64,000 nucleotides of DNA from Bacteroidota bacterium. Its GTDB lineage: Bacteria > Bacteroidota > Bacteroidia > Bacteroidales > UBA4417. Each line of letters starts with the position of its first letter. The stretch's first letter is position 1. Below, piece after piece: positions 45,682-64,000 of this stretch. The DNA is taken from the NCBI GenBank assembly GCA_022711175.1, contig JAKLFM010000006.1, positions 8,720 through 72,719 on the forward strand, written 5' to 3'. Below the pieces are notes generated by a model that was given only the letters and a program-made list of their open reading frames with translations, did no database searches and was not told the DNA's origin. Position numbers and translations under genes: made by a program.

Positions 45682-47406
45682 TCAGAGAAACAAACCCATT
45701 GTCAGGTTAAGCCTCATCACCATCCCGATATGCCATTCTTCACGGTTATCCAGATAACCATGACTGAAGGAAAAATCGTCGAGGTTATAGGAAGTATTAT
45801 CTAATGAGAATTTTCCGTAGGATGCTCCCAGCGAGAAGTTAATATCCAGGCCAACTGCCTTACCTGCCGAAAATTGACCAATATTAAATGCCAGCTGATA
45901 GTATGTATCTGTTGGGTTAAATAATACCGCCGTCTGGGTTAAACCCGTTGAAAGGCTGGTGACATCGCTGGTAATATCCGACAGTTTCCTGCTTGAGTAA
46001 CCAAACTGTGGTCCGAAATAGGTTGTGGAACTTTTCTTGCTGAAGACGTCCGGGCTAAAACGAAATGATATATCAATCTGCTGGCCGCTCCAGTAATATT
46101 TGTCGCTCGAATTGTCTTCCACTTCCTTGAAAAACATGTCTGTCCAGGCGTACAAGTTTTTACGAACTTCCATATAAGAGCCCAGCAACATAAATTTACC
46201 GGCTGATATTCCGGCAACACCGCCGTAGTCGCGGTAATTTTTATGACCAATAAACCTCAGCGGGTAGGTTCCAAGGTAAAGGTGAACACCACCGCCGGCC
46301 GATCGTAAAGCACTTTTTGCTGCTTGTTGATTGCATTTCAAGGCTTTATGGCTAAAGATTTCAGCCTGGCCGGTATTCCCAAGGTTGCTGTATAAACCCG
46401 ACAGTTTTTCCAACTCGCCGCAATTGAGAGTAGATGAAGCTGCAAGCATATCACATGCCCGGCCTTTAAGGGTGCGGCTGCTGTATTCACCCGACGAAGC
46501 AAGTTCGAACAGGAAGTCCTTATTTCTGTTTCCTGCATCCAGCGTTCTCTGGTAAGCCTTGGCAGCCAGTTCTTTATCGCCGGCCTTAACAAGCAGTGAT
46601 GCGGCTCTTGAGAATGCAGTTGCAGCATCACCGCTCGAAGCGTTCCTGTCAAAAGCATCGGTAAGGTAATTCCACCCCTTTTTGTAATTTGCGTTAAATG
46701 AATCGACCAGTTTTTTGTCATCACTGTTTAGATTATTATATCCGGCCATCATATTCAGCGACTGCTCCACCATTTCATTGTCAAACTGCCCGAGTTTGGA
46801 TTTCGTGCTGAGCAGGAAATTAAACGAAAGCATCTTCAGAAATGCGTCACCGGTTAAAATTACCGCCTGCCTGCTGCTTTCGATGGCCAGGTCATAATTG
46901 TTTTGTTTTACAGCGCCTTCGGCAAGCGCTGTGTAAAACTGGCCCCGCGTATAGCTGAAATCTTCGTACTTAATGATGTAATTTTTACTCTCGAACTTAT
47001 ATCGCAACGGAAAGTATGAAGAACCCGACTGATCAAAGAACTCCTTGCAGGTTGCAAGCAGTTCCATCATGCGGCTGTTATGCCCATATATACCATATAA
47101 AAATCCGTTCTGGTACCTCAGGTTATTTGAGAAGTACCTGACTACTTTCAATTGGTCATCCGTTTCAGGATCAACAATGCCTGAGAGTATTGCCAAGCTT
47201 TCGTTAATGCGGTTTTCAACCCGTTTTAAATCAGGCTGTGTTCGTTGTGTATTAAACTGTAATAGATCTACCTCAGCTTTTATTTCGTTGTAGATTTTAA
47301 CCGCGTTCTCTATTTTCAAATCATTTTCAGTGGACACCTGAGCTTTAATCTGAGTGGTGAAACAGATGAAAATTGATGTGATAAAGAATGTAAAATGTGA
47401 TCTCAT
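45682..47406 (-). CDS. Hypothetical secreted protein (helical-repeat N-terminal half, beta-rich C-terminal half)
   Basis: 574 aa with a signal peptide ending IKAQ. The N-terminal half is TPR-like by composition. The C-terminal half has alternating patterns and ends in ...LTMGLFL. No family was recognised. Confidence 0.5.
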   Translation of the reverse strand: MRSHFTFFITSIFICFTTQIKAQVSTENDLKIENAVKIYNEIKAEVDLLQFNTQRTQPDLKRVENRINESLAILSGIVDPETDDQLKVVRYFSNNLRYQNGFLYGIYGHNSRMMELLATCKEFFDQSGSSYFPLRYKFESKNYIIKYEDFSYTRGQFYTALAEGAVKQNNYDLAIESSRQAVILTGDAFLKMLSFNFLLSTKSKLGQFDNEMVEQSLNMMAGYNNLNSDDKKLVDSFNANYKKGWNYLTDAFDRNASSGDAATAFSRAASLLVKAGDKELAAKAYQRTLDAGNRNKDFLFELASSGEYSSRTLKGRACDMLAASSTLNCGELEKLSGLYSNLGNTGQAEIFSHKALKCNQQAAKSALRSAGGGVHLYLGTYPLRFIGHKNYRDYGGVAGISAGKFMLLGSYMEVRKNLYAWTDMFFKEVEDNSSDKYYWSGQQIDISFRFSPDVFSKKSSTTYFGPQFGYSSRKLSDITSDVTSLSTGLTQTAVLFNPTDTYYQLAFNIGQFSAGKAVGLDINFSLGASYGKFSLDNTSYNLDDFSFSHGYLDNREEWHIGMVMRLNLTMGLFL

Positions 47407-52316: not shown

Positions 52317-54362
52317 TTACTTTATAACGGTAAGCGCTTCATCAACAGCTTTGAGCATCGGCTCCACCGAAATGGTACTGCCAACAGCGCCTTTCATCCA
52401 CACCTGCGGAACTAGTCGTCCCTGTGTGTACATGCGGTCAACCTCTTTGGCGAAGTTCTTGTCTATGATGTATCCGTCAACCTGGAAATCAATCAAATGG
52501 CCGACAGGATAATTCGAAAGGTATAGTGGATTATCAATCATATGCGAATAAATGGCAAGGATCGGTTCATCCTTTGTCCCGAAAACGGGAGCATAATATT
52601 TATTCCATACATCTTTTGCGATGGTTATCACCGATTCCTTGAGTTGGGCCGGAGTGGCGTTGGGATTGTCGTACATCCACTTCCAAACCTGCATGTCAAC
52701 CAGCGAAACGCCCATGATCTCGTAGCACGACCAAATGGCATCCAAAGCGGCAAGATGTTCCTTGTTCGGGTCATTGTCGTTAATTCCAAGCAGGTATAGG
52801 TCGCGTTTCTGGAACAGGAAAGCCAGGGCTTCGGTAAAAGCTGTGTTGGGAACGCCCTGCATCATGTAGTTGTCAATGTCGTATAGGTCAATGGTTTGTT
52901 CAACATTATGCCCGAATTCATGGGTGGCGATGTTGTATCCTTTGTAATTCATGCCTTGCGGTGTTAGACGTGTACGCAACCGGGCCTTGTCGCCCCTCAT
53001 AGCAGCGCCTGCTGCATGTCCTGAACCGCGTGCCGGATCAACCTGCACTTTCGATGCGATATAATCGGCTCTTTCGGGGCTCCAGCCCAGCTTACGGAGA
53101 ATGTTCGGCATGTCCTTTTCAAAAGCTTTGGCATCGGGATAGAGTCCGGTTGTTTTAACCGTCAGTTCATCTTCGTTGATACTGCTTCTGGCTTTGAAAC
53201 CGTCGTACCAGATGTCGAAAGGTTCAAGGTTGCGGCCAAGCCTTTTGCTGATCAGGGCACCAACTTGTTTGATCTCCGGTGAGGTGATGAGGCTGATGAA
53301 TAGTTTTTCGACATCGGCTTCCGGTATTTCCATGCCCAGTTCAAAAGCGCGCTGGCTGAAGGTGGGATATGCCGGGTAGTATGGATCGACCGATTTCATG
53401 GCTTTAAAATTATTCAGCAGCATCTCGTAACGGGTTTCGGGCTCCGGCTTGAAAGTAACTTCCTTGCCATCCTTCAATATTTTGTTGTCAGCGGGATTCC
53501 ACCGGAATTCCTTGTTGTTGATCACTTCCTGAGGGATACTCTGGTCGATGATGCGCTTCATCACGGTATAAACCATCTTTTGCTTTTCCAGTCCGTCGGG
53601 TTTGCCGTAATGCGATTTCAATTCATCACGAAGCCCCCAGTGGGTGATCAGTTTCATGTCGGCAGGGAAATATGTTTTCCCTGAGGCATCCACCAGGTTG
53701 CCCATCATAATATTGTATTCCGAGATATACATGTCGCTTTTGGCAAGGGCATCCGCAACTTTCTGGTTCAGTTCGGCAGGCACGCGTGATGTGAAAACAT
53801 CACCCATCCTGGCATAAGCCCATTGGGTGCGGTTCCAGTTGGCTCCCATTTCGGTTTTTTCGGCCAGTGAATAAAATGGGAAGTTCAGCGCGGTAATAAA
53901 GGCAATTTTATTCTGGAAAAGGTCGTCGGTAAGGTGCGCCGAAGGCGAGAAGGAAGCAAAGATTTCATCCACGGGAGTAAGTTCAGGGCCGTCGAGGTCA
54001 ACAGGAACCCGCAGGTCCATTCCCATTTTGTTGAAGTTACCGTAAAGCACCTCGAAAGCATTCTGCAGTTTCTCAAAGAGAACCTGCAATTTAGCTGAGT
54101 CGGCAATGAAATTCCCGGTGCAGAAAGCTGCAAATTCATCGGCAGTGCCATCCTCTTGCTGCCAAAGCGATGCGGCTTGTTTCACCCCGCGTTCGATGCG
54201 GAATTTTGCCTGTTCGCCGCATGAGTCAGTAAGTTGTTTGATCACCTTGTCCATAGTTGCCTGGTTAATAAACGAAACCGTTGCGCCCGACTTTCCGGCA
54301 GGCTGTTTACATCCTGCAATTACTAAAAGCAGCAATGCAGGCAGGAGAATGAGTTTCTTCAT
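52317..54362 (-). CDS. Putative zinc metallopeptidase lipoprotein (HExxH)
   Basis: 681 aa. It has a lipoprotein signal (LLLVIAGC) and a single HEFGH zinc-binding motif (NIATHEFGHNVEQ). The subfamily was not identified. Confidence 0.6.
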   Translation of the reverse strand: MKKLILLPALLLLVIAGCKQPAGKSGATVSFINQATMDKVIKQLTDSCGEQAKFRIERGVKQAASLWQQEDGTADEFAAFCTGNFIADSAKLQVLFEKLQNAFEVLYGNFNKMGMDLRVPVDLDGPELTPVDEIFASFSPSAHLTDDLFQNKIAFITALNFPFYSLAEKTEMGANWNRTQWAYARMGDVFTSRVPAELNQKVADALAKSDMYISEYNIMMGNLVDASGKTYFPADMKLITHWGLRDELKSHYGKPDGLEKQKMVYTVMKRIIDQSIPQEVINNKEFRWNPADNKILKDGKEVTFKPEPETRYEMLLNNFKAMKSVDPYYPAYPTFSQRAFELGMEIPEADVEKLFISLITSPEIKQVGALISKRLGRNLEPFDIWYDGFKARSSINEDELTVKTTGLYPDAKAFEKDMPNILRKLGWSPERADYIASKVQVDPARGSGHAAGAAMRGDKARLRTRLTPQGMNYKGYNIATHEFGHNVEQTIDLYDIDNYMMQGVPNTAFTEALAFLFQKRDLYLLGINDNDPNKEHLAALDAIWSCYEIMGVSLVDMQVWKWMYDNPNATPAQLKESVITIAKDVWNKYYAPVFGTKDEPILAIYSHMIDNPLYLSNYPVGHLIDFQVDGYIIDKNFAKEVDRMYTQGRLVPQVWMKGAVGSTISVEPMLKAVDEALTVIK

Positions 54363-55896: not shown

Positions 55897-57426
55897 ATGA
55901 AAACTACTTCGGCAAAAGTACGATTTTTAGCGGCAGCGCTGTTACTCGCTTTGAGTTCGGCCTGTCATCCAAGGACCAATCCCACCCTCATCATGAATGA
56001 ACCTGATACTTTAATTAATCGCCGGCCGGCGGTTGCAGGGCAATTTTACCCCGGCACCGCGGCCGAACTGCAGCAAACTATGGAAAAGATGTTTGCCAAA
56101 GCACCTAAAGCGGTGAATAGTGCTGAGGTAAAAGCCATAATTGTTCCGCATGCGGGCTATGTCTTTTCAGGCGAAGTGGCGGCGGCCGCTTTTAACCAGG
56201 CTGATCCTCTCAAAGAGTATAAAACCGTGTTTATTATCGGATGCAGCCACCGCAATTCATTTGCCGGAGCATCAGTTTACAGCATAGGCAATTATATCAC
56301 ACCATTTGGCGAAGCGCCGGTCGATCTCGAAACAGCCCGCCAGCTTAGTATTGCGAATAAAGTAATGTCGTTCGATCCGGCCTACCAGCAGAACGAGCAC
56401 AGTGTTGAAGTGCAGGTGCCATTTGTGCAGTATTTTCTGAAAAAAGGCGTGAAGATTGTACCGATACTCCTGGGAACACAGGACCCGTCGGTCTGCAAAA
56501 AAATTGCAGAAGCGTTGAAACCATACTTCAACGATGAAAATCTTTTTGTGATCAGCACCGATTTTTCGCATTACCCGGCTTACGATGAAGCTGTTAAGGT
56601 TGATAAATCAATTGCTGATGCCATATGCACAAATAAGCCATCTCGACTGATTGATGCTGTAAGTGCCTGCATGAAGAAACCGGTTGAAAACCTTGCCACA
56701 GGCTGCTGTTCGTGGCCATCGGTGCTCACACTCATGTACCTTACTGAGGAAGCGAATGATGTTACATACAAACAGCTGATATACCGTAATAGCGGCGACT
56801 CACCCTATGGCGATAAAGACCGTGTGGTGGGATATTGGGGAATCGTTATCAGCCAGCCTATACAGGAAAACGGCTTCAGCCTCACTGAAAGCGAAAAACA
56901 GCAACTGCTGGGCATTGCAAGAAATACGATCAATGAGTACGTCAGGAGCGAAAAGGTTCCGGAGCTGTCACCCTCAAAACTGACTGACGCCCTGATGCAA
57001 AAAGCAGGTGCATTTGTAACCCTCCGAAAACACGGCGACCTGAGAGGTTGCATCGGGCATTTCGATGCTGATCAGCCTCTATACAGCATTGTTCAGCAAA
57101 TGGCTGTAGCCTCATCGACACAGGATTACCGGTTTTCGCCTGTGCAGCCTGATGAAATGAAGGATATTAAAATAGAAATATCAGTGCTTACACCAATGAA
57201 GAAAATTTCTTCGGTAAGCGAAATTAAACTTGGCCGCGACGGCATTTATGTCCGCAAAGGAGCCCGCGCCGGGACTTTCCTGCCCCAGGTAGCCACCGAA
57301 ACCGGCTGGGGTCTTGAAGATTTCCTGGGGCATTGTGCCCGCGACAAAACCGGCATTGGATGGGACGGCTGGAAAGACAAGGATACGGAGATTTTTACTT
57401 ATCAGGCTTACGTCTTTTCAGAATAA
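55897..57426 (+). CDS. Fused AmmeMemoRadiSam system protein B (MEMO1-like) and protein A (AMMECR1)
   Basis: 509 aa with a lipoprotein-like signal (LALSSAC). The Memo motif is IVPHAGYVFSG in the N-terminal half. The AMMECR1 motif is LRGCIGHF in the C-terminal half. Confidence 0.85.
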   Translation: MKTTSAKVRFLAAALLLALSSACHPRTNPTLIMNEPDTLINRRPAVAGQFYPGTAAELQQTMEKMFAKAPKAVNSAEVKAIIVPHAGYVFSGEVAAAAFNQADPLKEYKTVFIIGCSHRNSFAGASVYSIGNYITPFGEAPVDLETARQLSIANKVMSFDPAYQQNEHSVEVQVPFVQYFLKKGVKIVPILLGTQDPSVCKKIAEALKPYFNDENLFVISTDFSHYPAYDEAVKVDKSIADAICTNKPSRLIDAVSACMKKPVENLATGCCSWPSVLTLMYLTEEANDVTYKQLIYRNSGDSPYGDKDRVVGYWGIVISQPIQENGFSLTESEKQQLLGIARNTINEYVRSEKVPELSPSKLTDALMQKAGAFVTLRKHGDLRGCIGHFDADQPLYSIVQQMAVASSTQDYRFSPVQPDEMKDIKIEISVLTPMKKISSVSEIKLGRDGIYVRKGARAGTFLPQVATETGWGLEDFLGHCARDKTGIGWDGWKDKDTEIFTYQAYVFSE

Positions 57427-57477
57427 ATACCGGCGTTATAACCATTCATATACTAATTTCCGTATCCTGAATTCCTG

Positions 57478-60042
57478 ATGGATAAACCATACGCCGTTCT
57501 TAGCATACCTATCATCAGCCTGGTTGTTTATCTTGCATCCTTGCTGGCTATAAGATTGGGTGTGTTCAGCAAAGATACGCATCGGAAATTCTGGAATATA
57601 TTTTTACTGGCAGCTTTTGCCGGAGCAGCCGGATTGGGATTCCTGCTCGCACTGCAGGTCAATTACAAATTCGACCTGCTTACAGCCGCAACGTTTCTCA
57701 AGGTTCATGTGGATTTCGGCATTGCTCTGCTTGTGATAGCATTGCTTCACTTTTTAAGGCATCTCACCTATTACCTGAAAATTATTAAACCGCGGCATGA
57801 AAAAAAGGCGGTTGAACAGAACCAGAGTGAAACGATAACTAAGAATAGCGGCACTGACGGTGAAATAAAAAGTTCAAGCAGTTACTGCTTTCTGTTACCA
57901 TTCTGCCTGGGGCTAACGTCCATGTCGGCCCAAATTATCCTGCTCAGGGAATTTCTTTCGGTTTTCAATGGCAACGAACTTGTTATAGGAGTTGTTCTGG
58001 CCAACTGGATGTTGCTCACCGGCGCCGGGGCATGGCTCGGAAGGTTCACATTTAAGCAAAGGCCGACGGATGCAGGTCCTGCTTCAGCAATAACCGCACT
58101 TGCAGGAGCTGCCCCTGCTACTTTGTTTGCCCTTGATGCTTTGCGAAATGTTCTGTTCACCGCCGGCAGCATGGTGGGGATTTTGGAAGTGTATCTCGCC
58201 TCATTAATACTATTGGCGCCATTTTGCCTCACATCGGGATTGCTTTTCACCCGGCTGACGGCACTTAATGCGCTTTGGCCCGACAAAAGCTCCATTGGGA
58301 AAGTTTATGCCTGGGAAAGCATCGGGAGTGTGGCCGGTGGTGCGCTGTTCAACTTTGTACTTGTGTTTTTCCTCAGGCCATTCGAGGCTTTCGGGATTAT
58401 CATAGCCGTAAACGCCCTGCTTCTGGGGATTTGGGCTTTCACATCAGGGGTAAGGAGTCTGCTGCGAAGTGCTATGTTCATTGGCTTCGTTTTCTCTGGA
58501 GTCATCGTTTTCCTGAATCCTGACATTGCCGCTAAAAAGCTACTTCTGCCGGGCCAGCAAATTCTGAAATACACAAATTCACCTTTTGGTGATATCGTTT
58601 TCTCCGGGAGCGAAGGTCAAATGAATCTATACGAAAACAATACGCTGATCTACACTACCAACAACATTATTTCGAACGAGGAATCGGTCCATTATGCGAT
58701 GCTTCAGCGCGATAACCCGAAGAATGTGCTGCTTATCGGCGGCTGTTTCCCGGGTGTGATAGGTGAAGTATTGAAATATCCCGTCAAAAAGATTGATTGC
58801 ATAGAAATGAGCCGCCGGCTGCTCGAAGAAACAAAAAGTACACTGGGAATGCCGGATGATAAACGATTCAATGTTATTACAGGTGATCCGGTTTTGAATT
58901 TGCGTAAAAACATACAAAAGGTGAGATATGATAACCAGGATGGTAGTTCCAGAGTTAAGTACGATGTCGTTCTGCTGAATCTCCCTGATCCTTACACCCT
59001 TCAGCTGAACCGCTTTTATTCGCTGGAGTTCATGCAGCTGTTAAAACCCCTGATGACCGATGATGGCGTGGTTTCGCTCAGCCTGACCGCCACAGCCGAT
59101 TACATGGGATTCAGCTCCCGGAAGGTACAGTCGGTGATGTATGCAACCCTGAAACATATATTCAGTAATGTGATGGTGATTCCCGGCGACAGGAATCATT
59201 TCGTTGCTTCCGATAGCCCTGTAAGGATTGATGTTGCTGCACTTCAGGTGGAAAGAGGAATAGAAACGCAATATGTAAATCCATATTACATTGACGATCA
59301 GTCGATAAGCGAGCGCAGCCAGGTGTTGATGAAAGCCATTGATGCCGAGGCGCCGGTAAATCACGATTTTGAACCGGTTGCATTTAAAAGCCAACTCGAT
59401 TACTGGCTCGATTATTTCGGCATCAGCCTGCGACTGCTGCCTGTTGTGCTGCTGCTTGTAATACTGGCAGTGCTTTTGAGGAGCGATGGCATTGGTGCAG
59501 GAGTGTTTATGGCCGGTTTTGCAGCTTCAGCTTCCGAAATAGCTGTTCTGCTCGCATTCCAGGTCCTGTATGGCTATGTTTTTATTGCTGCTGGCATGTT
59601 CATCACGCTCTTCATGCTGGGTCTGGCCATTGGCGCAGTACTTGGACACAGGTATTTTGTGAATCCTTCCTTCAAGGCCGTCACCTGGTTACAGGTTTGT
59701 ATGTCGGTTGCGATGCTTGCAGTTTCGGGTGTCATCTATGGTTTTTACAAGGTTCATTGGAGCGTAGCAATCATCCATATTGGATTCGGGCTTATTTTAC
59801 TGGCTATCGCTATGCTCACCGGTATTATCTTCCAGGTAACGTCGGTAGTGAAAAAAGGTGAAGTAAAGACCGTGGCCGGTTCGCTCTATGGTTCCGATTT
59901 GCTGGGATCGGCAATCGGGGCTCTCCTTATGAGCATCTTCATGATCCCGGAACTGGGCTTGTTCAAATCTTTGCTTTCTCTGACTGTGCTGTGCCTGTTT
60001 TCAGTATTAGTTATGTTGTTGAAAAGGAAGCCGGTATTGTAA
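57478..60042 (+). CDS. Polytopic membrane protein with an embedded spermidine-synthase-like (aminopropyl/methyltransferase-fold) domain
   Basis: 854 aa with about 10 N-terminal TM segments. The soluble core VLLIGGCFPGVIGEVLKYPVKKIDCIEMS...YDVVLLNLPDP resembles SpeE GGG(D/x)G and D..DP motifs. About 6 further TM segments follow. Confidence 0.75.
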   Translation: MDKPYAVLSIPIISLVVYLASLLAIRLGVFSKDTHRKFWNIFLLAAFAGAAGLGFLLALQVNYKFDLLTAATFLKVHVDFGIALLVIALLHFLRHLTYYLKIIKPRHEKKAVEQNQSETITKNSGTDGEIKSSSSYCFLLPFCLGLTSMSAQIILLREFLSVFNGNELVIGVVLANWMLLTGAGAWLGRFTFKQRPTDAGPASAITALAGAAPATLFALDALRNVLFTAGSMVGILEVYLASLILLAPFCLTSGLLFTRLTALNALWPDKSSIGKVYAWESIGSVAGGALFNFVLVFFLRPFEAFGIIIAVNALLLGIWAFTSGVRSLLRSAMFIGFVFSGVIVFLNPDIAAKKLLLPGQQILKYTNSPFGDIVFSGSEGQMNLYENNTLIYTTNNIISNEESVHYAMLQRDNPKNVLLIGGCFPGVIGEVLKYPVKKIDCIEMSRRLLEETKSTLGMPDDKRFNVITGDPVLNLRKNIQKVRYDNQDGSSRVKYDVVLLNLPDPYTLQLNRFYSLEFMQLLKPLMTDDGVVSLSLTATADYMGFSSRKVQSVMYATLKHIFSNVMVIPGDRNHFVASDSPVRIDVAALQVERGIETQYVNPYYIDDQSISERSQVLMKAIDAEAPVNHDFEPVAFKSQLDYWLDYFGISLRLLPVVLLLVILAVLLRSDGIGAGVFMAGFAASASEIAVLLAFQVLYGYVFIAAGMFITLFMLGLAIGAVLGHRYFVNPSFKAVTWLQVCMSVAMLAVSGVIYGFYKVHWSVAIIHIGFGLILLAIAMLTGIIFQVTSVVKKGEVKTVAGSLYGSDLLGSAIGALLMSIFMIPELGLFKSLLSLTVLCLFSVLVMLLKRKPVL

Positions 60043-60152
60043 ATTATCAGTAGGTCGAAATAAAATTTTGAATCAACAGCCTCAACATAAACACCGGTTC
60101 AGTGACGACTGAGCTTCTTCATGACGTAACTTTGTTGGTGAAGCTTCAATAA

Positions 60153-61289
60153 ATGGATAAAAGAGTCTTTATTAAATCGGTTTTTGCTGCAGCAGGTTGC
60201 TTTGCCTGTGGCCTGAACCGCTCTTTTTCCGAAGCAAATAATTTCATTGCTGAAACGCCTGCGGGCGGAGACTTGTGGAAATGGAACCATGAAGCCTATC
60301 ATTACAAAGTTACCGAAAGAGGAGTTGAATGCACCAATTGTCCCAACGGATGCACATTAAAACGAAAGGAAACCAGCAAATGCCGAAACCGCATCAACAT
60401 TGGCGATAAGCTTTACAGCATTGCTTATGGCAATCCATGTGCGGTTCACATTGACCCTATCGAGAAAAAGCCATTCTTTCATTTTCTGCCTTTGTCCAGG
60501 GCGTTTTCGATAGCCACAGCCGGCTGCAACCTCGCATGCCTGAATTGCCAGAACTGGGAAATTTCACAGAAAAGTCCCAGGGAGACCACCAATTATGACC
60601 TTATGCCGGCCATGGTGGTGGATGAGGCTCTTAATAACAATTGCGAAAGTATTGCATACACCTATTCGGAACCGACCACATTTTACGAATACGTATATGA
60701 TACGGCCGTGATTGCCCGCAGTAAAGGTATCAGGAATGTTTATAAATCAAACGGTTACATCAACGAGAAGCCAATCAGGATGCTGAGTAAATACCTTGAT
60801 GCAGCCAACATTGACCTGAAAGGATTTACTGAAGCCTCGTATCTCAAGTTGAATTCGGGGAAACTGGCACCTGTGCTCAGGACATTGCAGGTGCTAAAAG
60901 AAGAAGGCGTGTGGCTCGAAATCACCAACCTCGTTATTCCCACCTGGACAGATAATCTGGATATGATTAAAAACATGTGTAACTGGCTGGTGAAGAACAA
61001 CATGGCTGATTGCCCGCTGCATTTCAGCCGTTTCACGCCCTTGTACAAACTCACCCAACTGCCTTCCACGCCGGTGCAGGTTTTGCAAAAAGCACGTAAT
61101 ATTGCCCTTTCGGAGGGAATGAAGTATGTTTATGTCGGGAATGTTCCCGGCACCGATCTGGAGAATACCATTTGCCCGAAATGCAGGAAAACCGTGGTTC
61201 AACGAAAAGGATTTGTTGTTACGGCCAATAACTTAGTAGATGGAGCTTGTAGATTCTGTCATCAGAAAATCGCCGGAACCTGGAACTAA
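60153..61289 (+). CDS. AmmeMemoRadiSam system radical SAM enzyme (PFL-activase-like)
   Basis: 378 aa. The radical SAM cluster motif is CNLACLNCQNW. It has an N-terminal Cys-rich segment (CTNCPNGC...C) and C-terminal CPKC...C..C. Confidence 0.85.
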   Translation: MDKRVFIKSVFAAAGCFACGLNRSFSEANNFIAETPAGGDLWKWNHEAYHYKVTERGVECTNCPNGCTLKRKETSKCRNRINIGDKLYSIAYGNPCAVHIDPIEKKPFFHFLPLSRAFSIATAGCNLACLNCQNWEISQKSPRETTNYDLMPAMVVDEALNNNCESIAYTYSEPTTFYEYVYDTAVIARSKGIRNVYKSNGYINEKPIRMLSKYLDAANIDLKGFTEASYLKLNSGKLAPVLRTLQVLKEEGVWLEITNLVIPTWTDNLDMIKNMCNWLVKNNMADCPLHFSRFTPLYKLTQLPSTPVQVLQKARNIALSEGMKYVYVGNVPGTDLENTICPKCRKTVVQRKGFVVTANNLVDGACRFCHQKIAGTWN

Positions 61290-61321
61290 AACCAACTGTT
61301 AATTTATTGTTATTCAATTGT

Positions 61322-62020
61322 ATGAAAATTGTTTCTCTTCTTGAAGATTTCATCTCGTTCTTCTATCCAAACACATGCTTTGCCTGCGGTAATTCGTTGT
61401 TTAAGCATGAGAAGATTTTATGCACCCATTGCCTTCATAATCTGCCAAAGACCAATTACCATATGCACCCCGGTAACCCGCTCGATAAGGTTTTCTGGGG
61501 CAGGGTGAAGATTGAACAGGCCACCGCCCTGTATTATTTCAGCAAGGGCGGCAAAGTTCAGCACCTGATTCACCAGCTCAAATACAGGGGCAAGAAGGAG
61601 ATCGGGGTTTATCTGGGCAAATTGCTGGGCAACGAACTGAAAGAAATTCCTTCCTTTCACGAAATCAGTGCTGTGGTGCCTGTGCCTTTACACCCGCGCA
61701 AGCAGCGAAAACGCGGCTATAACCAGAGCGAACAGTTTGCCATCGGGCTCGCCGAAGCAATGGGAATTAAACTGGAAACCAAATCGTTTATCCGTAAAGT
61801 TGCCACCGAAACACAAACCAAGAAATCACGGTTTGCCCGTTGGGAAAATGTGAAGGAAATATTTAGCGTTACTGACCCGGCAAAACTCGAAGGCCGTCAT
61901 TTGCTTTTGGTGGATGATGTGGTGACAACCGGAGCCACCATCGAATCGTGTGCCAACATTTTGCTGGCGTTGCCTGGTGTGAAGCTGAGCATTGCTTCAA
62001 TTGCTTTTGCTCATGAATAA
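61322..62020 (+). CDS. comF: ComF-family phosphoribosyltransferase-fold protein
   Basis: It has N-terminal zinc-finger-like CFAC...CTHC and a C-terminal PRTase motif, LLLVDDVVTTGATI. I start it at the ATG at 61322; the ORF-track start at 61307 is TTG. Confidence 0.8.
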   Translation: MKIVSLLEDFISFFYPNTCFACGNSLFKHEKILCTHCLHNLPKTNYHMHPGNPLDKVFWGRVKIEQATALYYFSKGGKVQHLIHQLKYRGKKEIGVYLGKLLGNELKEIPSFHEISAVVPVPLHPRKQRKRGYNQSEQFAIGLAEAMGIKLETKSFIRKVATETQTKKSRFARWENVKEIFSVTDPAKLEGRHLLLVDDVVTTGATIESCANILLALPGVKLSIASIAFAHE

Positions 62021-62026
62021 CTTCGA

Positions 62027-64000
62027 CTAGAGTTTTCCTGCAACAACAGTCGTCTTTTTGAAACGCTTGACGTCACCCTGCAGGTCGAATATTTCGATAT
62101 AAACAACATACCTGCCGATGGCAGCTTTGGTATTGTCATCGGTGATGCCATCCCAGGTAAAGGCTCCTGAAATGCCGCATAATTCGTTGTTTACAAGCTT
62201 GCGCACCTGCCGCCCTGTGGCATCATAAATTGTGACGCGGGCATTGTAACCTGGTTCGTCGAATGCATAGGCGATTGTAAGGTAATCATCTTTGCCGTCG
62301 TTGTCGGGTGAAATGATATCCGGTGAGAGCAGTATTTCATTGCCAGAATTATCCACTATGCCAAATTGCGAATTCTGATAAGCAGGCGTTGCAAAACCTG
62401 CCGTTTGCGAAGCCGAATGCCAGTTCGAAACCTGGTCCCATGGCAGGTTTGGATTGATTCGCTCAAGCGAAACCCCCTCAGCATTTGTCAATAATGGGTA
62501 TTGCATTTTATCATTATAGGCGAAGCGGTCGATCACCAAGCCGGTCTTTAATGCCAGCGCAATTGCCCCTTCATCGTCGTTCATTGAAGGCAAGTCATCA
62601 ACCTGCACAAATCCGGCAGGGTTGGTGGTGATATAAAAGGCTTTAACGGCTGCCGTATCTGTTGTCAGAACCAGGTAATCACCCGGCAGGATGAGTCTCG
62701 ATTCGCTGCTCAGGTTCGATTCATCACTCAATATTAATGTGGCAGTATCACAGGTGGCTAAAATAAGCCACTGCAAATCAAAGACATCTGTAGTTCTGTT
62801 AAGGATTTCAACAAAATCAACGCATCCCGGAGCGGGATTGTAAAGCACTTCGTTGATAACGATGTCATCAGGTCTGGCCACTGAAGGTATGGCGAACCGG
62901 GCTGTGGCCGATGATGAGATCACATTGCCCGCACAATCGCTAAATGAACCGCTGAGCGTGAGAGTATAAACCGTTCCCTGAACGATGGGATTGGCAAGTA
63001 TCATGACAACTTTCCGGTAATCGGGACCTGTAAGTAATACTGCAGCAGGATTTCCAATGCCATTATCAATGTTGTAATTAGCAGGATTTGAGATCGTTGT
63101 GCTATCCATCGATTCCGAAAACCATACCGGGATTTGGTATGGAGTATCTACGCCTACTCTTAGGATTTCAGGCAAAGTGTAATCGGGATTTGAAGCGCCG
63201 GCGTTGTTAATTCTGCCCGGTGTGCCTCCCGATGCATCGTTTGAGGCAGTCCAGTTGGCGGCATCGCCGCAGGGATTCAAAGGGTCGATCTGCTCCAGCG
63301 ACCAGCCTCCATCTTTTTTATAATCACTTCCGTACCAGTCGTCAGTGAATGTGACCGAATGAATCATACGTCCGCCGGCGTCAGTAAGCGTTATGGTGGT
63401 TCCTGTATTTACCACCGAAAAGCTCGAGAATCCTAAACATGGGCCATATGCTGATAGTGCTGGCTGCGCGGCGGCTGATCCTATAATGAGGTAATCGCCA
63501 GCAGGAAGAGAATAGGATGGAAAGGTCTTCACACTGCTGCCAAGCGTTAGCGTCCAGTTTTCAAGATCAATGTCAAAGTTCCTCCGGTTAAATATCTCAA
63601 TGTACTCTTCGTCGGGCAGTCCCACAACTGGATTCGGATCGGCCATAATTTCGTTGATGAGCACATCAAATTGTTTCACTTGGTGCCAGCCTACAGCGAT
63701 TTGAGCATTTTGCATCACATTGCCTGCCAGGTCTTTAATTCCGTCGGCTGATAAAATGTAAGCAACATCCGGTGTAAAATCAGTATCAAAAAGCAGGTGT
63801 ATAAGCGAAAAATCCTGCGCATCGCGAACGGCAATGCTGGGATTACCGATCGCCTGGTCAACGGAGTAGTTGGTCGCTTTCTCTGCGCTTGCCTGGTCGA
63901 GACTTTCGGAAAAATGCAAGTCTATAGTGTTGGCCGACAGCACGTTGGCCGTGAGTAAAGTTGGCGGGGTTTTATCAACGATTACCTCGCCTGCATACAC
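62027..64000 (-). CDS. Lamin-tail-domain (LTD) repeat protein, partial (N-terminus beyond the window end)
   Basis: At least 657 aa, open to the window edge. Two LTD signatures are present: LINEIMADPNP...EYIEIFN and VINEVLYNPAPGCVDFVEILN. They are interleaved with Ig-like segments, and a C-terminal beta-sandwich sorting-type tail follows (DDYLTIAY...GRYVVYIEI). Confidence 0.7.
   Translation of the reverse strand: MYAGEVIVDKTPPTLLTANVLSANTIDLHFSESLDQASAEKATNYSVDQAIGNPSIAVRDAQDFSLIHLLFDTDFTPDVAYILSADGIKDLAGNVMQNAQIAVGWHQVKQFDVLINEIMADPNPVVGLPDEEYIEIFNRRNFDIDLENWTLTLGSSVKTFPSYSLPAGDYLIIGSAAAQPALSAYGPCLGFSSFSVVNTGTTITLTDAGGRMIHSVTFTDDWYGSDYKKDGGWSLEQIDPLNPCGDAANWTASNDASGGTPGRINNAGASNPDYTLPEILRVGVDTPYQIPVWFSESMDSTTISNPANYNIDNGIGNPAAVLLTGPDYRKVVMILANPIVQGTVYTLTLSGSFSDCAGNVISSSATARFAIPSVARPDDIVINEVLYNPAPGCVDFVEILNRTTDVFDLQWLILATCDTATLILSDESNLSSESRLILPGDYLVLTTDTAAVKAFYITTNPAGFVQVDDLPSMNDDEGAIALALKTGLVIDRFAYNDKMQYPLLTNAEGVSLERINPNLPWDQVSNWHSASQTAGFATPAYQNSQFGIVDNSGNEILLSPDIISPDNDGKDDYLTIAYAFDEPGYNARVTIYDATGRQVRKLVNNELCGISGAFTWDGITDDNTKAAIGRYVVYIEIFDLQGDVKRFKKTTVVAGKL

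Follow-up and report, generated by a model that had tools for sequence, protein, structure and literature searches.

The window, i.e. the whole 64,000-nt stretch of Bacteroidota DNA analysed here, contains three consecutive open reading frames on the plus strand, which encode a fused Memo-AMMECR1 protein, a polytopic membrane protein with an embedded SpeE-like domain, and the cognate radical SAM enzyme (hereafter rSAM; Table 1). Direct reading of the sequence confirmed this layout as it had been described in an initial annotation, including the coordinates, the gaps and the diagnostic motifs. The intergenic gaps measure 51 nt (fusion to membrane gene) and 110 nt (membrane gene to rSAM); neither contains a terminator-like site on the plus strand, and a sigma-70 promoter scan, the consensus of which is unsuited to Bacteroidota, remained at chance level. 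Among orthologous loci the median gaps amount to about 30 nt and 78 nt, with overlaps of 4 and 8 nt, and this close spacing is compatible with co-transcription. The ComF-like phosphoribosyltransferase gene downstream is probably no member of the system and was rejected as such, since its position next to the rSAM gene is limited to L001, L002, L003 and L008, the four closest relatives.

Table 1. Features of the locus; positions are counted from the first letter of the window.
Feature	Position	Strand	Details and basis
Memo-AMMECR1 (AmmeMemoRadiSam B-A) fusion	55897..57426	+	509 aa; TIGR04336 and TIGR04335 above cutoff, Pfam Memo and AMMECR1
Fusion signal peptide with lipobox-like Cys23, MKTTSAKVRFLAAALLLALSSAC	55897..55965	+	sequence reading; orthologue signal scores
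Membrane protein with 17 helices, 'fused MFS/spermidine synthase' family	57478..60042	+	854 aa; homologues, AF2 model
Optional N-terminal 3-TM module with conserved His (HRKFWN, HVDFG, HxxWH)	57478..57786	+	part of the membrane protein
TM block 1: six-helix repeat unit (aa 138-326) and extra helix TMg (aa 326-346)	57880..58545	+	hhalign, hydropathy, K/R parity
SpeE-fold domain, predicted periplasmic	58546..59427	+	Foldseek, PDB alignments, family residue table, topology
TM block 2: extra helix TMh (aa ~648-668), second six-helix unit, K/R-rich C-terminal tail	59428..60042	+	hydropathy, AF2, hhalign
AmmeMemoRadiSam radical SAM enzyme	60153..61289	+	378 aa; TIGR04337 above cutoff
Tat-type signal peptide of rSAM, KR variant of the twin-arginine motif, MDKRVFIKSVFAAAGCFACGLNRSFSEA	60153..60236	+	orthologue motif comparison
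ComF-like phosphoribosyltransferase	61307..62020	+	17 nt downstream of rSAM; TIGR00201 103.6 bits, below cutoff

Canonical AmmeMemoRadiSam is a soluble three-gene system. Conservation of two of its components, Memo and AMMECR1, extends from archaea to humans, and both have links to human disease. Extended gene contexts of Memo and AMMECR1 are reportedly covered by Burroughs et al. 2019 (JBC). Literature searches for AmmeMemoRadiSam, for AMMECR1 with spermidine synthase and for fused MFS-spermidine synthase found nothing relevant. The locus in the window resembles the canonical system in that TIGR04335 (AmrA/AMMECR1), TIGR04336 (AmrB/Memo) and TIGR04337 (AmrS) all score above their curated cutoffs and the corresponding genes are clustered. 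On the other hand, it differs by holding a fourth gene, that of the polytopic SpeE-like membrane protein, and by its N-termini: the rSAM has a Tat-type extension, which canonical amrS lacks, and the fusion has a lipoprotein signal.

Within the fusion, which contains both the IVPHAGYVFSG and the LRGCIGHF motif, Memo spans aa 44-316 according to PF01875 (197 bits) and aa 42-318 according to TIGR04336 (240.3 bits, cutoff 26), while AMMECR1 spans aa 340-507 according to PF01871 (176 bits) and aa 336-507 according to TIGR04335 (172.6 bits, cutoff 99). Its N-terminus, MKTTSAKVRFLAAALLLALSSAC, features a hydrophobic core and ends in Cys23 (...LLLALSSAC23); the protein bears a lipoprotein-type signal, and its acylation is predicted. 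As called, 50 of 57 orthologous fusions are signal-positive, and the remaining seven comprise five that turn positive with non-ATG starts, one with a short hydrophobic N-terminus only and one that is truncated. A lipobox-like Cys is present in 28 of the 50 signal-positive orthologues, and the relatives with non-ATG starts have ...FFSNC. The fusion as such is no novelty: it has been on record since 2007 (PMC2034487) and also exists without the membrane gene, e.g. in Ideonella and Segatella.

The rSAM attains 340 bits with TIGR04337 (cutoff 220) and contains the CNLACLNCQNW motif, with CX3CX2C located at aa 125-132. In an alignment C125, C129 and C132 are invariant, and all invariant columns are common to the rSAM and canonical amrS. 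Since all radical SAM motifs are kept, an exported rSAM should still need SAM. The N-terminal extension of 45-55 aa, which is absent from the amrS of Ideonella, Segatella and Trichlorobacter, shows a [KR]R-x-F-[LI]-K motif with a moderately hydrophobic region in 56 of 59 orthologues (7 RR, 49 KR), and the motif in the window, D-K-R-V-F-I-K, is of the KR type, the reference pattern for Tat substrates being S/T-R-R-x-F-L-K. The h-region has KD values of 1.2-2.0 in Tat-type rSAMs versus 2.6-3.6 in Sec-type homologues, and the c-region holds a basic residue. In these features as well as in the Fe-S cargo, the window-type rSAM resembles Tat-exported Fe-S proteins, from which it differs by the cargo being a radical SAM enzyme and by motifs that are mostly KR instead of RR. 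The Tat pathway exports folded, cofactor-loaded proteins. Judged from its sequence, the rSAM appears to carry a conserved Tat-type signal and is predicted to be exported, although the presence of KR in 49 of the 56 motifs weighs against this model. We know of no periplasmic SAM pool and no exported radical SAM enzyme, and no precedent for either was found in the searchable literature.

The initial annotation had proposed that the membrane gene constitutes a conserved insertion, and two independent neighbourhood surveys bore this out and rejected an idiosyncratic adjacency. The first survey covered 80 genomes picked by the membrane protein alone. Of its 62 informative loci, 55 had the B-A fusion upstream and 54 of 62 had the rSAM downstream; among the 48 fully informative ones, 41 had both partners in the same order. 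The second survey comprised 80 metagenome loci picked by the rSAM alone, which were counted if at least 4 kb were available on both sides. Here, 13 of 16 rSAMs with a signal were accompanied by the membrane protein, as compared with 1 of 7 rSAMs that lack one (Fisher p = 0.005, a value that overstates the support since the loci are not phylogenetically independent), and the membrane gene was missing within 4 kb in the other 3 of the 16. Gene order varies among the loci chosen by rSAM, opposite strand included. Moreover, the neighbourhood is kept down to 34% identity and in several phyla-level groups, and the same three-gene order in dozens of genomes is far beyond chance. A fifth conserved gene inside the cluster was rejected, the 45 extra ORFs being heterogeneous and many of them mobile- or toxin-antitoxin-like. 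The best reading is a single conserved three-gene module that represents an envelope form of AmmeMemoRadiSam with a fourth, membrane-embedded component; the membrane or envelope setting to which the insertion had been taken to point is likewise supported.

For the membrane protein 573 homologues were found. The MFS label of this family stems from NCBI protein names alone: no MFS Pfam match was obtained in 16 family members at E up to 5, a PDB profile search with the membrane protein returned no transporter at E up to 10, so that neither Pfam (0/16) nor the PDB profile search supports the view of the TM core as a transporter. The AF2 model (pLDDT 87.6, pTM 0.86) consists of 3 + 7 helices, a SpeE fold and another 7 helices, and PF01564 matches at aa 401-535 (54.6 bits, cutoff 22.9), between two hydrophobic blocks. 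An internal repeat (aa 138-326 versus aa 673-853; hhalign probability 97.6%, E 4.8e-12) divides 12 TM helices into two homologous six-helix halves, a layout shared with MFS transporters, and in the 7 + 7 arrangement of the AF2 model two helices fall outside this repeat. The N-terminal 3-TM module is missing in family members of about 715 aa, has no Pfam match, and occurs elsewhere as a stand-alone protein or behind a secreted 4-Cys motif. Its assignment as DUF4405 was rejected; the match was single and weak (E = 0.027), concerned 1 of 16 members and came without a position within the protein.

A periplasmic location of the SpeE-like domain is suggested by the parity of basic residues, by the repeat with its extra helices and by a marker domain in giant variants of the protein. 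Odd loops that exceed a few residues in length carry 1.9-5.9 K/R, while the even loops carry about none, with the exception of one in the N-terminal module (1.4). Hydropathy, AF2 and hhalign agree on a parallel six-TM repeat plus two strongly hydrophobic extra helices, which are predicted to thread the SpeE-fold domain through to the membrane face that lies away from the K/R-rich loops, i.e. into the periplasm. In the three giant variants (L143, L153 and L154), which resemble NapH-like/NosR-type proteins, the core is fused to one TM, an FMN_bind domain and, where the contig allows, Fer4_5, so that exactly one TM lies between the K/R-rich C-terminus of the core and FMN_bind, a domain that is extracytosolic in NapH-like proteins (PMC8238504). 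The predicted periplasmic domain and the Tat-type signal of the rSAM are features beyond the account of the initial annotation.

Foldseek against the PDB retrieved SpeE and thermospermine synthase structures at a target-normalised TM-score of about 0.7. The window domain shares the fold, the glycine loop, E443, D470 and the E...H motif with SpeE (PF01564, TIGR00417), and TM block 1 together with the domain aligns to the membrane-anchored PRK03612-type proteins (NF002956) over aa 164-535; unlike in SpeE and PRK03612, however, a TM block flanks the domain on either side, and its predicted location is the periplasm. PDB alignments reveal that E401, H405, E443 and D470 are retained. E443 and D470, both nearly invariant in the family, align to D/E and D of the SpeE enzymes of T. 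thermophilus and P. calidifontis, the positions of the ribose-binding acid after strand 2 and the adenine-binding Asp after strand 3, respectively. GGG[D/E]G, the acid of which, according to structural work on SpeE, contacts the amine of the aminopropyl group in dcSAM and keeps SAM out, is replaced by GGCFPG with a hydrophobic residue in the window, and position 424 is never acidic (I, L, V, F, A, S, T or P in 38 of 38 tabulated family members). The catalytic Asp, i.e. the first D of D-[LS]-[TS]-D-P, corresponds to N501 in the window and to N, D, H, Q, A, L, I or S in the family. The equivalog HMMs stay far under their cutoffs (TIGR00417, 50.6 versus 249.55; PRK00811, 53.8 versus 260; PRK03612, 106.4 versus 472). 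The polyamine-related, aminopropyltransferase role proposed in the initial annotation is rejected on these grounds. Loss of the cofactor-binding residues had been named there as an observation that would refute the proposal; the dcSAM acid and the catalytic Asp are indeed lost, while the adenosine-binding residues are kept. The latter leaves room for a SAM-related role, and judging by these residues, the most likely ligand of the domain is SAM or else an adenosyl by-product (such as 5'-deoxyadenosine or MTA).

Architectures combining FMN_bind and Fer4_5 have been described for electron transfer across the membrane to extracytosolic redox enzymes (PMC8238504, in which the terms radical SAM, Memo, AMMECR1 and DUF4405 do not occur). 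Apart from the giant variants, only isolated redox-related neighbours stood out near the clusters, including one gene with DsbD_2. The window protein is devoid of a NapH-like/FMN module and has the His-rich 3-TM module instead. At the giant-variant loci the membrane protein is present and the rSAM lacks a signal; E443, D470, E401 and H405, which are conserved in loci with exported rSAM, are degraded there. SAM supply would thus not be the sole role of the membrane protein, since the giant variants pair it with a signal-less rSAM.

The lipoprotein signal of the fusion, the Tat-type signal of the rSAM and the predicted topology of the SpeE-like domain would make three different targeting routes converge on one compartment. 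We favour, with a probability of roughly 0.45, the prediction of an envelope AmmeMemoRadiSam module with a membrane subunit that serves adenosyl ligand and electrons. This subunit would supply an adenosyl ligand, probably SAM, as well as reducing power to the envelope-located system. The 12-helix core would most likely move the ligand across the membrane and hand it to the exported rSAM, and accessory modules would bring reducing power outside. In the window protein this task would fall to the His-rich module at the N-terminus, and in other lineages to a NapH-like/FMN module within the same protein or to the product of a DsbD-like gene next door. The substrate of the pathway would be an envelope component. 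More tentative, and somewhat unlikely as a whole, is the specific form in which the rSAM is Tat-exported in the folded state and works outside the cytoplasm, the membrane protein delivers SAM or removes 5'-deoxyadenosine, redox modules deliver electrons, and the rSAM together with the lipoprotein Memo-AMMECR1 modifies an envelope component.

Alternatively, the membrane protein itself might be an enzyme of the pathway: its periplasmic domain of SpeE/class-I-methyltransferase fold would use SAM or dcSAM, possibly imported through the TM core of the protein, to alkylate the envelope substrate on which the other three activities also act. This reading, a refined form of the idea in the initial annotation, accommodates the complete SpeE fold, the conserved adenosine-binding residues, the conserved family-specific motif N511-R512-x-Y514 beside the pocket, an N-L-P-x-P motif in the place of the catalytic D-x-x-D-P of SpeE, and a match of two family members to the small methyltransferase domain PF05175. 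We consider it rather unlikely, given the variable catalytic position 501, the absence of the dcSAM-specific acid throughout and the low SpeE equivalog scores (50.6 versus 249.55; 106 versus 472), while a SAM source outside the cytoplasm is equally a problem here.

It is improbable, furthermore, that the rSAM is Tat-exported with bound SAM as a regenerated cofactor, which would render SAM supply needless, and that the membrane protein flips or presents a lipid-like or polymer substrate, with the SpeE-like domain binding this substrate or docking the enzymes. Tat does take folded proteins with their cofactors, the giant variants combine signal-less rSAMs with a degraded ligand site, and at some loci the B-A fusion is exported by its signal and the rSAM has none, a combination that implies passage of the substrate through the membrane. 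However, binding of a non-adenosyl substrate does not account for ribose- and adenine-binding residues that are strictly conserved at loci with exported rSAM, and SAM regeneration by the AmmeMemoRadiSam rSAM family is without evidence.

The N-terminal segments could also act as mere membrane tethers, with the SpeE-like domain in the cytoplasm and the system at the inner face of the membrane, using cytoplasmic SAM and reductants. Neither SAM nor low-potential electrons would then be needed outside the cell, KR is more frequent than RR in the motif, and the Sec-type signals borne by some rSAM homologues, which as signals on Fe-S proteins are hard to reconcile with export, make better sense as anchors. 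Nevertheless, this arrangement is quite improbable: the positive n-regions predict N-in, C-out, the B-A fusions have lipobox cysteines, and an outside location of the domain follows from K/R parity over 17 helices as well as from the pair of extra hydrophobic helices and from the FMN_bind marker. Incidental adjacency, in which an ordinary AmmeMemoRadiSam operon would have received the membrane gene without any functional relation, can draw on orphan membrane genes (L030, L032 and L064) and on the unrelated mobile-type genes that do enter the cluster, but is most improbable, as it is contradicted by the surveys, by recurrence of the association in differing gene orders and by conservation down to 34% identity across phyla-level groups.

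Envelope-targeted soluble parts and a dedicated membrane partner narrow the search for the function of this system to an envelope substrate and to the binding or transport of an adenosyl ligand. If the rSAM is active in the periplasm, radical SAM chemistry could no longer be assumed to be a purely cytoplasmic affair, and export of SAM and of low-potential electrons would be implied.

By sequence, the window locus is a genuine representative of the AmmeMemoRadiSam system, which comprises AMMECR1 (AmrA), Memo (AmrB) and a radical SAM enzyme (AmrS, rSAM); it matches each of the defining models. In the first gene product, the Memo half (PF01875 at aa 44-316) scores 240 bits with TIGR04336 and the AMMECR1 half (PF01871 at aa 340-507) 172.6 bits with TIGR04335, both exceeding the curated cutoff. 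The second gene encodes a membrane protein whose spermidine-synthase-type domain PF01564 (aa 401-535, 54.6 bits) is bordered by a hydrophobic block on each side. The initial annotation had placed the three plus-strand ORFs at exactly these coordinates; they are separated by 51 and 110 nt, and a scan of both gaps found no terminator-like site on the plus strand. The closest protein matches stem from Bacteroidales and Lentimicrobiaceae MAGs.

Features of the window locus and of one related locus
Feature	Location	Strand	Remark
ORF1, Memo-AMMECR1 fusion, 509 aa	55897-57426	+	domain matches
ORF2, membrane protein, 854 aa	57478-60042	+	PF01564
N-terminal 3-TM module of ORF2	57478-57786	+	four conserved His (HRKFWN, HVDFG, FHxxWHxxYY)
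ORF3, radical SAM enzyme, 378 aa	60153-61289	+	TIGR04337, 340 bits (cutoff 220)
ComF-like phosphoribosyltransferase, N-terminal double zinc ribbon	61307-62020	+	begins 17 nt past radical SAM gene
Large surface protein, lamin-tail + Big_5 + CHU_C (type IX secretion) domains	62027-64000	-	continues beyond window end
DsbD_2/CcdA-type membrane protein (PF13386, 64 bits)	L107:9002-9703		between rSAM and membrane gene; this locus only

The genes flanking the cluster, encoding a nitroreductase (minus strand), a TonB-C/TPR protein, the ComF-like protein and the T9SS-tagged surface protein, are unrelated to it. The ComF-like gene follows the rSAM gene only in the four closest relatives, and the surface protein fits the Bacteroidota origin of the DNA. 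Two large minus-strand ORFs of the window, at 52317-54362 (681 aa) and 45682-47406 (574 aa), did not match any Pfam family at E<=1e-5; the former starts with a lipoprotein-type N-terminus, MKKLILLPALLLLVIAGC.

Insertion of the membrane gene, whose possible conservation had been raised in the initial annotation, proved to be widespread rather than idiosyncratic to this genome. A first survey started from aligned membrane proteins (alignment A1) and covered 80 genome loci of 34-69% identity labelled as Bacteroidales, Lentimicrobiaceae, Prolixibacteraceae, Rikenellaceae, Ignavibacteriota, Melioribacter, Chlorobi, Zhuqueibacter and a few Terriglobia MAGs. Among loci with sufficient flanking sequence, the fusion gene lies directly upstream in 55/62 and the rSAM gene downstream in 54/62, and 41 of 48 contain the two together. 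The first junction spans a median of about 30 nt and the second 78 nt; in certain genomes the genes overlap by 4 or 8 nt. A second survey reversed the selection, starting from a diverse rSAM alignment (A3) that led to 80 metagenome loci of 41-61% identity, and only loci having at least 4 kb on each side were counted. Here, a membrane protein whose architecture matches from end to end was encoded near 13 of 16 rSAMs with an N-terminal signal and near one of seven signal-less ones (Fisher p = 0.005, for loci that are phylogenetically non-independent). Moreover, gene order varies among the distant loci of this survey, with rSAM first, with the membrane gene downstream, or with that gene on the other strand, which favours functional linkage over inherited synteny.

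Several deviations were also recorded. The membrane gene is an orphan at L030, L032 and L064, where Memo, AMMECR1 and rSAM genes are absent within up to 10 kb, and a single MAG holds a clustered long and a separate short copy (L019, L047). Small unrelated genes interrupt some clusters without altering their order (L056:2308-2924, L072:12157-12773, L029:12462-13331, L031:3160-3861, L051:12457-13218, L036:9196-9933, L037, L043, L074); domain search identified none of them, and several look toxin-antitoxin or phage-type.

The membrane protein belongs to a family of 573 matches labelled 'fused MFS/spermidine synthase' by NCBI. An MFS nature of its TM core could not be confirmed from sequence: MFS Pfam models matched none of 16 family members, and a PDB profile search returned no transporters. 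A confident AF2 model of ORF2 built from 90 sequences (pLDDT 87.6, pTM 0.86) has groups of three and then seven helices, followed by a full SpeE fold (aa ~357-650) and a further seven helices. Profile comparison revealed that aa 138-326 and aa 673-853 are homologous units of six helices each (probability 97.6%, E 4.8e-12), so that the core constitutes a parallel 6+6 repeat. Since both units share one orientation, the two extra, strongly hydrophobic helices flanking the SpeE-like domain (aa 326-346 and ~648-668) must take it across the membrane and back. In addition, family-averaged K/R counts alternate cleanly between odd loops (2.7, 5.9, 3.5, 1.9, ..., 3.1, 1.9, 1.0) and even loops (near 0, except for 1.4 in one loop of the N-terminal module). 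A third marker comes from giant variants at L143, L153 and L154, in which exactly one TM lies between the K/R-rich C-terminus of the core and an FMN_bind domain, which is extracytosolic in NapH-like proteins (PMC8238504). All three lines predict a periplasmic SpeE-like domain.

Both soluble proteins bear signals, predicted to be lipoprotein-type on the fusion and Tat-type on the rSAM; the latter, like the topology of the SpeE-like domain, was overlooked in the initial annotation. The window rSAM starts with MDKRVFIKSVFAAAGCFACGLNRSFSEA, and 56/59 orthologues feature [KR]R-x-F-[LI]-K (7 RR, 49 KR) ahead of a moderately hydrophobic stretch. The 45-55-aa N-terminal extension is missing from AmrS of Ideonella, Segatella and Trichlorobacter, and the signal-bearing enzymes retain all radical SAM motifs. 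The N-terminal signal peptide of the fusion, MKTTSAKVRFLAAALLLALSSAC, runs to a lipobox-like Cys23. Fifty of 57 orthologues are signal-positive as called; five others become so with non-ATG starts, one has a short hydrophobic N-terminus only and one is truncated, and a lipobox-like Cys occurs in 28. Together with the topology of the membrane protein, these signals would represent three targeting routes to one compartment. Some rSAM homologues carry a very hydrophobic Sec-type signal (L107:7815-9002, L129:2000-3115, L130:7905-8993, and at L111, L115, L119, L125, L140, L157 and L158), which is puzzling in an iron-sulfur enzyme and difficult to reconcile with insertion of its Fe-S cluster.

Annotated plasmid loci that lack the membrane gene offer a contrast. 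On an Ideonella dechloratans plasmid, a signal-less fusion directly precedes signal-less amrS. On the Segatella hominis plasmid NZ_CP137560.1 (L082, 4408-6825), the fusion has a hydrophobic, signal-like N-terminus and again directly precedes signal-less amrS, whose C-terminal CxxC...CxxC region is missing; L102 and L105 resemble it in signals and gene content. At these three loci, fusion and rSAM would sit on opposite sides of the membrane, which points to a substrate that crosses it.

Foldseek matched the SpeE-like domain to SpeE and thermospermine synthase structures (target-normalised TM-score near 0.7). Alignment to Thermus thermophilus and Pyrobaculum calidifontis SpeE, along with a table of 38 family members, shows that E443 and D470 are shared with SpeE, as are the E401...H405 motif and a glycine loop (G422, G426), whereas a hydrophobic or small residue always stands in for the acidic position of GGG[D/E]G (F424 in the window) and the catalytic Asp position is N501, variable in other members. 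In line with SpeE crystal structures, E443 is taken to be the ribose-binding acid and D470 the adenine-binding Asp, and the other site roles are likewise assumed. Of the cofactor-binding residues, whose inspection the initial annotation had suggested, those for adenosine are kept, while the dcSAM-specific acid is lost, as is the catalytic Asp. The domain probably binds an adenosyl ligand, and classical aminopropyl transfer is unlikely; SpeE equivalog models also score ORF2 far under cutoff, and the polyamine role once proposed is not upheld.

Redox-related modules accompany some members of the family. The giant variants (1034-1307 aa; L143:10772-14692, L153:3623-6724, L154:3185-6631) end in one TM, FMN_bind and, where the contig reaches far enough, NapH-type Fer4_5 iron-sulfur motifs (PF12801); their neighbours are an rSAM lacking a signal and a Memo-AMMECR1 fusion anchored by its N-terminus. 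Such NapH-like architecture has been described as a modular device that carries electrons through the membrane to redox enzymes outside the cytosol (PMC8238504); the window protein has the His-containing 3-TM module instead. That module, without a Pfam match, defines an unnamed family (525 representatives at E<=1e-3, e.g. P0248, P0249, P0251, P0242, P0271), which stands alone, opens the membrane proteins or forms the C-terminal part of secreted proteins (~240 aa) that carry C-x6-C-x3-C-x12-C; a redox role for it is a guess. Individual clusters contain a further radical SAM protein, equipped with Fer2_4 and Fer4 domains (L117:10926-12194), or a DUF362 protein with a Tat-like RRSF N-terminal motif (L148:6602-7603).

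The analysis supports gene linkage, signals on both soluble proteins, a predicted periplasmic domain, and loss of aminopropyltransferase residues with retention of adenosine-binding ones. Our preferred reading, held tentatively at a probability of about 0.45, is an envelope-located AmmeMemoRadiSam variant whose membrane protein is a service subunit and not a polyamine enzyme. The TM core would move SAM, or remove 5'-deoxyadenosine, the SpeE-like domain would dock the adenosyl ligand for the exported rSAM, accessory modules would supply electrons, and the substrate would be an envelope molecule. The three giant variants, which are paired with a signal-less rSAM, have lost E443 and H405, a small point of agreement with this mechanism. 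A genuine periplasmic alkyltransferase, compatible with the retained adenosine-binding residues and set against the altered acid and Asp positions, is the foremost, though unlikely, competitor. Less probable still, SAM might travel bound to the rSAM through Tat, as its predicted signal would allow, leaving the membrane protein to handle the substrate. That the signals are tethers and all parts cytoplasmic is improbable beside the predicted periplasmic domain, and coincidental adjacency can practically be dismissed in view of both surveys.

Burroughs et al. 2019 reportedly extended Memo-AMMECR1 gene contexts towards isoprenoid modification. A 2007 paper had already described the fusion with its radical SAM neighbour and put forward a modification of RNA bases (PMC2034487). 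In the papers searched, there was no mention of the membrane SpeE-like partner, of a Tat-type signal on the rSAM or of the periplasmic topology; Burroughs et al. 2019 may already describe part of this. The locus offers a concrete and testable way into a function that has long resisted explanation, and it suggests, surprisingly, that radical SAM chemistry might also take place beyond the cytoplasm.
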